Assembly: GCA_963787835.1 (NCBI GenBank)
Contig: CAWBEI010000002.1
Span: 608,001-672,000 of the forward strand
Source: Ignavibacteriota bacterium
GTDB lineage: Bacteria > Bacteroidota > Ignavibacteria > Palsa-1295
Length of the DNA: 64,000 bases
Reading direction: 5' to 3'
In this document: piece by piece, positions 43,021-48,153 of the stretch
How the letters are laid out: every line of letters starts with the position of its first letter
Position numbering within the stretch: the stretch's first letter is position 1
The notes under the pieces: model-generated
Database searches by the model: none
What the model saw: only the letters and a program-made list of their open reading frames with translations
What the model was told of the DNA's origin: nothing
Position numbers and translations under genes: made by a program

Positions 43021-43449
43021 AATTTCTTTACGGTTTTACGGTCTCATCCCAAATTATCCATTTCATAGTTTGGCACCGGAACTTGCAATAGGACGACTTA
43101 AAAAAATACAGAATTGCATAAAACTGACATTGGTTGTTAAAACTGGGATTGCGAAGACCAGCTGTTTTTGAAAAAACTGAAAACTATTATTCATGATTGC
43201 GTTATAATCGCTTCATGAACTATGCAGATTTTGTTCCATATTGTAAATAATCCGGATCTCAGTTCCTATTGAAAGTATTGAGTCGGAGCCCCGAGAACGA
43301 AAAACTAGAAAACGTTTTCATCATCGAGGCTTGATGAATGCTTGTTCAAACGTTCATGAACTACACCCGGCCTCGTCAAAAGATAGTTTCAGTTGGCACG
43401 ATACTGATATTCTGTCGATGTGGTAATGTCAGTAAGAACGGGAAAGGCA

Positions 43450-43641
43450 ATGGATCAAGAACTACGAGAACGAATTCCGTCGCGGTACTCAAGGATCGAG
43501 GAGTTCACCCTCGCATCCAGAATACTCGCGGAACAATTCATGCAAGAATGTATCGCCCATAAAGTATTGCCAACGTACGATGCCTTTACGATCTGGCTAA
43601 AAGATCATGAAAAAAATATGAGTTCCTATTATTGGCAATAG
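43450..43641 (+). CDS. Small hypothetical protein (63 aa)
   Basis: GGGAAAGG upstream of the ATG; long AT-rich upstream region; followed by a strong terminator. Confidence 0.6.
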   Translation: MDQELRERIPSRYSRIEEFTLASRILAEQFMQECIAHKVLPTYDAFTIWLKDHEKNMSSYYWQ

Positions 43642-43709: not shown

Positions 43710-43743
43710 AAATCCCTGCACTGACGATGCAGGGATTTTTTTT
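43710..43743 (+). terminator. Rho-independent terminator
   Basis: AAATCCCTGCA-ctgacga-TGCAGGGATTT followed by a T run. Confidence 0.85.
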
Positions 43744-43848
43744 GATCGAAATGTTGCAAGCGAGATCTATCTGCTGAGTCCCTCGACGCTTCGTCGGAAA
43801 AGGAATCTGCGATTACGATCGCTATTTCAGCAGGATCCCCCTCCTGAG

Positions 43849-44520
43849 TTAATTCTTTGCTGGGATCGAAGCCCCCTGCGTCTTTACCGCCATCATGACA
43901 TCGACTGTTCCATCGCCATCCACGTCTCCGGAGGCAATGCTGATGCTGATGAATTTGGGGGAAGCGGCATCGACTTCTTTGCGAATCGTGATCGGGGTGT
44001 GAGCGTGCGTGGCACTCGTCGTCGCACTGCCACTCAGTATGGCACTGCCATTTGTGGTTGCACTGCCGCTCGTCATGCCACTGCCGTTTGTCGGCATACC
44101 CATAATATTATTGGATGCCGTAGCATTATGCGAAGCAGTATTGGCATTCGTGAAGGTATAGGAGTTGGAAACGTTCGATGGCGCGCTGCTCGGTTTCGTC
44201 GTGATGATAACAGTATAATTCACCGGTGCGCCCTGGCTTTTTGCAGCCATTGCCCTGATCTGTGACCAGTCATCCATGGAGGTCTTGCCACCATCGACCC
44301 ATGCGACCTGCACATTGAACGTTCCGACCGGCAGCTTCCCGGCATCCACCGAACCATTAATGCAATGCACTATTGCGTGAAAACCTTTCGCAGGCCCGGA
44401 CATGCCGTCGATCTTAAGATATGCATCAAGGGCAGCCCGGGACGTCGTCGTACCCGCCATAAGCGCCAGAAGCGCTAGGGACACCGAAATCATTCTACCA
44501 ACGAAGCGATGATGTTTCAT
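43849..44520 (-). CDS. Secreted protein carrying Hcp-like (T6SS tube) motifs and a GDVDGDG motif
   Basis: Signal peptide ending SRA; mature N-terminus ALDAYLKIDG; HTPITIRKEVDAASPK; TAnnTTTG box at 44540-44547 and AAAGGA upstream. Confidence 0.75.
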   Translation of the reverse strand: MKHHRFVGRMISVSLALLALMAGTTTSRAALDAYLKIDGMSGPAKGFHAIVHCINGSVDAGKLPVGTFNVQVAWVDGGKTSMDDWSQIRAMAAKSQGAPVNYTVIITTKPSSAPSNVSNSYTFTNANTASHNATASNNIMGMPTNGSGMTSGSATTNGSAILSGSATTSATHAHTPITIRKEVDAASPKFISISIASGDVDGDGTVDVMMAVKTQGASIPAKN

Positions 44521-44753
44521 AAAAGAAATCCTTTCTTGACAAAAATAGAACCTATAGCTTGGGAACAACCAGAGCCGCAAACAGTTGCATGGGCTAAAAT
44601 GTTTTTTACCCTGCCGGTATTGTGATAGGCGCTTCCTGCTCCGCTCACTCGCTGGTGTCTGACTTTAAGATGACGTTGTTGCATAAGCCTTTGTTCTTCT
44701 CTTCCGAACCCTTTACGTGCATGGTGCATGTTGTTAAAACAAAGGAGAATTTA

Positions 44754-47565: not shown

Positions 47566-47814
47566 ATGATGAATCTTGGACCATACCCGCATATCGCCTT
47601 AGACCCGAAGATCTGCGGCGGCGCACCGTGTATTGCTGGTACACGCATTCCCGTTCGAACCATCGGCTCCTATGTGCAAATGGGAATTTCGCCAGACGTC
47701 TTGATCCAAGATTATTACCCGTGGCTCACGAAAGCAGAAGTGTTTGCTGCACTTGCCTACTATTATGACCATCTTCCTGAGGTCGAGGCTATAGATATCG
47801 TAGAAGCTGTATAG
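47566..47814 (+). CDS. DUF433 antitoxin
   Basis: DPKICGGAPCIAGTRIPV, YPWLT.AEV.AALAYY.DH. Confidence 0.93.
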   Translation: MMNLGPYPHIALDPKICGGAPCIAGTRIPVRTIGSYVQMGISPDVLIQDYYPWLTKAEVFAALAYYYDHLPEVEAIDIVEAV

Positions 47815-47823
47815 TCTCAAACG

Positions 47824-48153
47824 ATGACACTGCCAGCCTTACTGCTCGATGAAAACATTCCCTACGGTTTGCAACGGGCGTTGCGGCAAAGAGGCTGGGA
47901 TGTCGTGCATGTGAAGGACATTGGAATGCGTAGCGCCAGCGACCCCGAAGTGCTTGATGCAGGCATTCGCTCCAATAGAGTCATACTCACGTATAATATT
48001 GGTGATTTCACTCGATTGGATGAGTTATTACGAAATGCAAATCGTCCGCATCCCGGCATTCTTGTTTCCGTTGAACGTGCGATCGGAGATTTGGTGGATA
48101 GGTTAGAACACTTTGACTTCTCGCAAATTGATTCTACATTTAGGCATCTGTAA
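47824..48153 (+). CDS. DUF5615/VapC45-like PIN toxin
   Basis: LLLDENIP, GWDVVHV, SDPEVL, RVILTYN..DF, HPGIL. Confidence 0.9.
   Translation: MTLPALLLDENIPYGLQRALRQRGWDVVHVKDIGMRSASDPEVLDAGIRSNRVILTYNIGDFTRLDELLRNANRPHPGILVSVERAIGDLVDRLEHFDFSQIDSTFRHL

Follow-up and report, generated by a model that had tools for sequence, protein, structure and literature searches.

The open reading frame at positions 43849..44520 (minus strand) of the window, the whole stretch of 64,000 nucleotides that was analysed, encodes P0001, a protein with a predicted export signal and with three short segments of Hcp (TssD), the tube protein of type VI secretion systems (T6SS). These segments are of Hcp origin, they stand in a permuted order, and they are under selection at the peptide level. 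P0001 belongs, as a somewhat degenerate example, to an apparently undescribed class of exported proteins built as peptide mosaics, and its architecture is well supported. The frame is complete (223 codons, 223 aa) and is present in a single copy in the source genome G000 (98% complete); compared with its syntenic orthologue P0002 it shows a pN of 0.18 and a pS of 0.64, the linker described below being left out. The named relatives are Candidatus Kapabacteria.

All motifs named in the preliminary description were found at their places in P0001. The Sec-type export signal is one of these: residues 1-29 (44434..44520, minus strand) form a predicted Sec/SPI signal peptide in which the n-region is basic, the core is hydrophobic and residue 29 is followed by a cleavage site of small residues; it has no lipobox cysteine. 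This signal was read by eye and from hydropathy, not with SignalP, and residues 5-22 are helical in the predicted model. The T9SS sorting domain PF18962 is common in G000 (at least 150 matches; 150 of 250 candidates were scored), and P0001 had no match to it at E values up to 10; lacking this C-terminal domain, P0001 does not class as T9SS cargo. Since it has neither a T9SS tail nor a lipobox, P0001 is probably periplasmic.

The sequence also agrees with the monocistronic layout proposed earlier: the gene upstream is divergent, the ORF downstream is convergent, and a weak terminator-like hairpin lies downstream of the P0001 gene at 43809..43822 (minus strand; four such hairpins found versus 2.1 expected in shuffles). 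The small convergent ORF (63-73 aa; 43420-43641, plus strand) is followed by a strong terminator-like hairpin at 43710-43738, and elsewhere in the window, at 47566-48153 (plus strand), a DUF433 gene is paired with a DUF5615/PIN-like gene, likely a toxin-antitoxin module. Around the family genes, neither defence genes, T6SS genes nor a conserved context was found among the 101 of 128 neighbouring ORFs scanned, and the idea of a conserved gene neighbourhood was rejected beyond close relatives. Several family genes from the same genus (loci L003, L029, L044 and L045) adjoin rpsL-rpsG, a setting that differs from the locus in the window; two of these loci also lie near tpiA. Downstream of the orthologue in genome G027, L046:2409-5541 holds ORFs that resemble, by eye, a transposase of the IS200 type and a reverse transcriptase that is split.

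The strongest of the three Hcp-like segments is the central strand with its helix cap, residues 174-189 (43954..44001, minus strand). Residues 162-192 matched Pfam PF05638 (T6SS_HCP) over profile positions 38-68 of 129 (E 0.009; 16.7 bits versus a cut-off of 23.5), the partial match to TIGR03344 scored 15.5 versus a cut-off of 58.9, and residues 163-195 aligned with residues 47-77 of P0116 with a score that none of 1000 shuffles reached. P0116 is a full-length canonical Hcp, itself aligned against PDB entries 4hkh and 3he1; both P0116 and P0110 were retrieved with the family profile, which biases these comparisons, and their likeness in the main word is partly due to how they were chosen. The second segment, residues 70-89 (44254..44313, minus strand), corresponds to the Hcp C-terminal tail: residues 74-85 aligned with P0116 146-157, and only 2 of 1000 shuffles reached the score. 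When residues 64-90 alone were searched with phmmer against PDB, no Hcp was matched. The likeness of residues 70-89 to the protein of L026 (13 of 20 identical) was discounted, since L026 had been retrieved with that motif. The third segment, residues 30-41 (44398..44433, minus strand), resembles the first strand of Hcp and forms strand 1 of the predicted sandwich (pLDDT about 87). In local alignment it was not significant, about 90% of shuffles reaching its score; in an ungapped segment test against two canonical Hcps it scored 33 against a threshold of 23, and the family profile matched the N-termini of solved Hcps with E values of 0.05-0.2. In Hcp the central strand comes before the tail; in P0001 this order is reversed. 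The Hcp-like strands of the preliminary description are thus beyond chance for the central segment, and weak for the first strand, which fails the local alignment and passes the ungapped test. Two partial T6SS_HCP matches had been expected, and Pfam gave one. The C-terminal half of Hcp had been described as absent; most of it is, but its tail is present.

The comparison with P0002 bears on how these segments are kept. The tail segment is identical at 18 of 20 residues (pN 0.06) and the central strand at 14 of 16 (pN 0.08), compared with a pN of 0.23-0.30 for the scaffold and pS values of 0.5-0.9, and no other part is so well kept between the two proteins. A loss of the Hcp-like motifs in homologues would have counted against the earlier proposal, and the orthologue conserves these motifs best of all. 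In the comparison with the L003 protein, which is more distant, the best-kept parts were the first strand and the FG-GAP-like hairpin; the tail and central strand were unexceptional there.

The remainder of P0001 is made of a scaffold, a linker and an acidic hairpin. Residues 42-69 (44314..44397, minus strand) are likely transthyretin/prealbumin-like scaffold strands, as judged from the matches of relatives and of the family profile: the N-terminal half of relatives matched CarboxypepD_reg, SdrD_B and SpaA, with E values down to 2e-9 and some scores above cut-off, and the family profile matched SdrD (E 1.3e-6) and NOMO2. P0001 alone gave no transthyretin-like match in Pfam. The sandwich-like strand that had been listed among the shuffled modules is part of the scaffold. 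The S/T/N-rich linker reported earlier is present at residues 112-173 (44002..44187, minus strand); it is 79% S/T/N/G/A, predicted to be disordered, and absent as an insertion from two homologues. It replaces the ring-stacking loop of Hcp, which most relatives keep, and the near-invariant G and R of the family (aligned positions 170 and 172) are also absent from P0001. A single FG-GAP-like acidic hairpin occupies residues 194-212 (43885..43941, minus strand); its PF01839 match (E 0.0048; 17.2 bits versus a cut-off of 22.1) is confined to one stretch and below cut-off, and two homologues are identical to it at 13 and 14 of 17 residues. This hairpin is possibly a Ca2+ loop. A five-residue pattern was also observed to be invariant at two places in P0001, P0002 and P0003 (residues 91-97 and 210-216 of P0001; 44230-44250 and 43873-43893, minus strand).

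The AlphaFold2 model of P0001 is an almost all-beta sandwich with a mean pLDDT of 65, falling below 50 over residues 123-169; the linker-less orthologue P0002 gave a model with a pLDDT of 72. The predicted sandwich has strand 1 and the first part of the tail segment among its strands (pLDDT 76-89). A Foldseek search of PDB with both models gave no match at E 0.001. With VIA-align, the best Z values for the two models were 6.2 and 5.8, to assorted beta-sandwiches; neither model reached a Z of 8, and no Hcp chain was among the 50 matches listed for each, a result that does not in itself speak against a given fold. Many FnIII and Ig chains were matched with Z values of 4.4-5.0 (about 75-80 residues, rmsd about 3 Å), values in the range that common arrangements give. 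From these models and the sequences of relatives, the scaffold is likely an Ig/transthyretin-like beta-sandwich.

P0001 belongs to a large family of apparently exported proteins that share short peptide words. A three-sequence profile found relatives in 26 of the 35 genomes of the order, one to six in each, and signal-like N-termini were present in all 45 family ORFs examined, their starts being picked by eye. De novo analysis of 159 proteins in 111 clusters yielded 382 six-residue words that recurred in at least four clusters, versus none in five shuffles. Among 70 pairs of words co-occurring in at least four clusters, 11 appeared in both orders; one such pair, the main Hcp word with the FG-GAP-like word, occurred in the two orders 22 and 17 times. 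Similarly, among 185 proteins the Hcp tail followed the main word in 17 and preceded it in 15, and the Hcp first strand preceded the main word in 51 of 51. Relatives keep the segments, in both orders, in agreement with the proposal of a family in which short peptides derived from Hcp are shuffled. The further proposal that the shuffled pieces are polymer-interface peptides is too narrow, as FG-GAP-, tyrosine-kinase- and integrin-tail-like words are also found in relatives. The tyrosine-kinase-like words had E values of 1e-6 and those resembling integrin beta tails were very weak (E 0.1-0.2); a weakly VgrG-like word (TIGR03361, E 0.03-0.04) was present in two relatives, in the slot held by the Hcp tail in P0001. 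Pilin-, needle- and tail-tube-like origins were considered for other words from impressions by eye, and were dropped since profile searches gave no support.

Of 44 family ORFs, 30 passed the score cut, below which P0001 and P0002 fall, and served to measure the conservation of the main word. In these 30, the main word showed 51% pairwise identity and 58% identity to canonical Hcp, and its four-fold sites were 33% identical versus 25% expected, that is, near saturation; in the rest of the protein, identity was 33% for amino acids and 32% at four-fold sites. With the peptide conserved and its four-fold sites near-saturated, the peptide is what is kept, and near-saturated synonymous sites rule out the origin of the main word as a DNA-level cassette or repeat. 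In Hcp numbering, the main word runs from about residue 38 to about residue 70 and covers loop L2,3, which, as described in PMC4650826, stacks the rings, its mutation stopping the stacking of hexamers.

In relatives with an outer-membrane barrel and in giant secreted relatives led by FecR, the main word is present in 3-18 copies. P0123 and P0125 (3375 and 3305 aa) have an N-terminal FecR domain, a cohesin domain, 18 and 8 main Hcp words, respectively, and FG-GAP-like words. P0126, P0129, P0135, P0152 and P0245 are long exported proteins, two of them with an outer-membrane barrel match; most have tandem arrays of Hcp words, several have tyrosine-kinase-like words and some have integrin-tail-like words. 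P0036 and P0118 consist almost wholly of low-complexity strings of words. In G000, P0001 is the only ORF with three vocabulary sites. The 16,790 representatives found at E 0.001 do not give the size of the family, as most of the top long proteins match through transthyretin-like repeats, and the main word was found in only 16 of 112 long proteins. A search of the phylum was positive in 17 of 301, mostly through the Hcp word, and these may include true Hcp.

The promoter box attributed to the gene in the preliminary description is a bipartite element at 44564..44590 (minus strand), with a -35 box at 44584-44590, a -10 box at 44564-44567 and a 16-nt spacer. It recurs 70-74 nt upstream of six related genes and fits the ECF consensus as given in PMC3426412; an ECF-type -35/-10 element conserved in homologues is what is expected of an ECF-sigma-dependent gene. 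A second promoter variant, whose -35 box matches the ECF41 box given in PMC3426412, was present in 19 of 45 upstream regions of family genes. No credible sigma-70 site was found upstream of the P0001 gene. A purine-rich element resembling a ribosome-binding site (44529..44535, minus strand) is common to 10 of the 45 upstream regions. G000 contains 24 matches to sigma-4 regions. Across G000 the promoter element was not enriched (20 matches versus 27, 19 and 15 in shuffles), so that no regulon is definable. The same promoter-like element also lies 65-81 nt upstream of the genes for two large proteins with signal-like N-termini in G000 (C4:410821, plus strand, and C2:1672232, minus strand); these are possible candidates for co-regulation, but the element counts are within chance.

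No T6SS lies near the P0001 gene, as had been noted, and none was detected in G000, where PF05638, PF04717 and PF05954 (Hcp, VgrG and gpD) gave no match and the positive controls matched. The sheath protein VipB was found in none of the 35 genomes of the order, PF05638 matches occurring in 19 of them. P0001 has thus not turned out to be a complete canonical Hcp tied to a T6SS. Searches of G000 for PF06841 (gp19 tube) and PF11751 (PorP) were blank, as were their controls, and are uninformative. Phage_GPD matches were found in 6 of the 35 related genomes, two of them above cut-off, so that some relatives may encode another contractile system. The two matches above cut-off (G011:C10:58234-59028 and G012:C106:10134-10919) lie in frames of about 545 aa, VipB being absent; G011 and G012 possibly encode extracellular contractile systems.

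Full-length Hcp behind a signal peptide was also observed. L026:5563-6063 (plus strand) encodes such a protein (PF05638 E 7e-18) in a genome, G335, of unstated completeness and with no VipB match, and P0109 is likewise a full-length Hcp with a signal peptide. Tandem arrays, each of at least three exported proteins that combine half a transthyretin domain with a near-complete Hcp or mixed words, occur at L048:1249-3178, L049:176-2108 and L047:523-2757 in genomes G003, G002 and G012, and the family profile aligns with the N-terminal half of Hcp around an insertion. There is a continuum from full-length signal-peptide Hcp, through half-transthyretin proteins with a near-complete Hcp, to fragment mosaics such as P0001.

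We tentatively favour, with rather less than even confidence, the view that P0001 is a periplasmic binding mimic, a putative decoy, of Hcp. P0001 would be exported by Sec and stay in the periplasm, its gene being induced by an ECF sigma factor; the Hcp segments would be displayed at the edges and loops of the sandwich, where they could bind foreign tube subunits or Hcp-recognising proteins (the tube, spike or cargo of an attacker), and such binding would blunt contact-dependent attack. As no other protein of G000 has this vocabulary, an Hcp-type partner must be either foreign or P0001 itself. A mimic is preferred for two reasons: the word that is conserved best and multiplied most corresponds to a known assembly interface, and a VgrG-like word can occupy the slot of an Hcp word; the 3-18 copies of the main word in barrel and giant relatives fit multivalent display. 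Several observations stand against a decoy: the ring-stacking loop is lost from P0001 itself, some words of the vocabulary (FG-GAP-, tyrosine-kinase- and integrin-tail-like) are unrelated to injection tubes, and the neighbourhoods scanned have no defence or T6SS context. Furthermore, the first Hcp strand is a predicted strand of the fold itself and so may be structural, and the Hcp continuum offers a simpler story of descent. Since a T6SS tube is polymerised before it reaches the prey, poisoning of its assembly from the prey periplasm is unlikely.

That simpler descent underlies a possible, rather unlikely, alternative, in which the family derives from a Sec-exported, T6SS-independent Hcp and has kept interface pieces for a filament or ring of its own in the envelope or matrix. 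The signal-peptide Hcps of L026 (whose genome has no VipB match) and P0109, the tandem intermediates of G002, G003 and G012 (signal, half a transthyretin domain and nearly a whole Hcp), the alignment of the family profile with the Hcp N-terminal half and the lack of another word-carrying partner in G000 all agree with it; however, the order of segments is scrambled, repeats and non-Hcp words are mixed in, P0036 and P0118 are hardly more than word strings, and with most of the Hcp barrel missing the ring geometry cannot be kept. We consider unlikely that the words act as ligands for receptors or anti-sigma factors, of the cell or its neighbours, that sense fragments of attack machines, with P0001 as an ECF-induced alarm or priming signal. 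The conserved ECF-type promoters in two variants, the 24 sigma-4 matches of G000, the fusion of words to N-terminal FecR domains in giant relatives and a vocabulary of unrelated sources, as befits a set of epitopes, would suit this role, but receptor, anti-sigma and ECF genes are not conserved beside family genes, and the unenriched promoter element defines no regulon. It is less probable still that stable strand and hairpin modules are reused in a periplasmic beta-sandwich of other function, the likeness to Hcp being mere ancestry: the model does place strand 1 and the beginning of the tail among the sandwich strands, but the words are more conserved than the surrounding scaffold and are near-invariant even in predicted-disordered contexts and tandem arrays. 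Finally, some relatives bear the NCBI name 'type VI secretion system tube protein Hcp', the nearest Atlas clusters are T6SS_HCP (0.81-0.82, a lead only), and Phage_GPD matches occur in six relatives, all of which could suggest a divergent canonical Hcp of a T6SS or other contractile system. This reading is extremely improbable, and the sequence tests already contradict it: the match covers only 31 of 129 profile positions and is below cut-off, the protein has a signal peptide and a permuted order, none of the 35 genomes has a sheath, and G000 has no Phage_GPD match.

Among known systems, the closest is Hcp/TssD itself (PF05638, TIGR03344; PDB 3he1, 4hkh, 6a2v and 5mxn). The family profile matched 3he1 with an E value of 9e-13, and P0001 has three short Hcp3/Vibrio-like segments; it differs in its signal peptide, in the permuted order, in the absence of most of the barrel, in a different predicted scaffold and in coming from a T6SS-less genome. 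It therefore lacks the full-length match, cytoplasmic synthesis, colinearity and genomic T6SS core genes expected of an Hcp. The N-terminal half of relatives resembles transthyretin/prealbumin-like domains (PF13620, PF17210 and PF17802); only about half of the domain is matched, the rest being broken by borrowed words, and it stands alone and not in adhesin repeats. P0001 has one sub-threshold acidic hairpin of the FG-GAP type (PF01839) and no propeller, for which several repeats above cut-off are required. The Sec-exported full-length Hcps (L026 and P0109) share the export signal, the lack of a T6SS and the segments, but keep the whole domain in its native order. The integrated decoys of plant NLRs and the bait region of alpha-2-macroglobulin likewise present pieces of targeted proteins on a carrier unrelated to them; in the present family, in contrast, the fragments are 10-35 residues long, come from several unrelated sources and are shuffled, with no effector or trap domain. 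No description of such a family was found in the full-text literature, a coverage outside which subscription journals and preprint supplements fall, and a Sec-exported full-length Hcp without a T6SS was not found in the literature searched. In the text available of 10.1101/2024.11.06.622250, T6SS_HCP-domain proteins are merely mentioned, in a secretome.

Proteins are normally shuffled by whole domains. In this family, the shuffled units are only 10-35 residues long and come from unrelated families; selection on the peptide keeps them near-invariant, and they are recombined in any order on exported carriers. A wider proposal, which we regard as doubtful, is that many T6SS-less bacteria share a vocabulary of short epitopes across phyla. 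The epitopes would be copies of parts of attack machines (Hcp, VgrG) and of other conserved proteins, and would be presented, freely shuffled, on exported beta-sandwiches and on outer-membrane barrels, with ECF factors in control; such a system would amount to a combinatorial defence by decoys, comparable to antibodies, against contact-dependent attack, with the P0001 gene as one member. If the proteins are decoys, they would provide a broad defence against type VI attack without effector-specific immunity genes, and short synthetic peptides would make the idea directly testable. Even apart from such a role, the family accounts for many 'Hcp' annotations in T6SS-less genomes (among the 35 of the order, PF05638 in 19 and VipB in 0), and is a living case of peptide reuse below the level of the domain.
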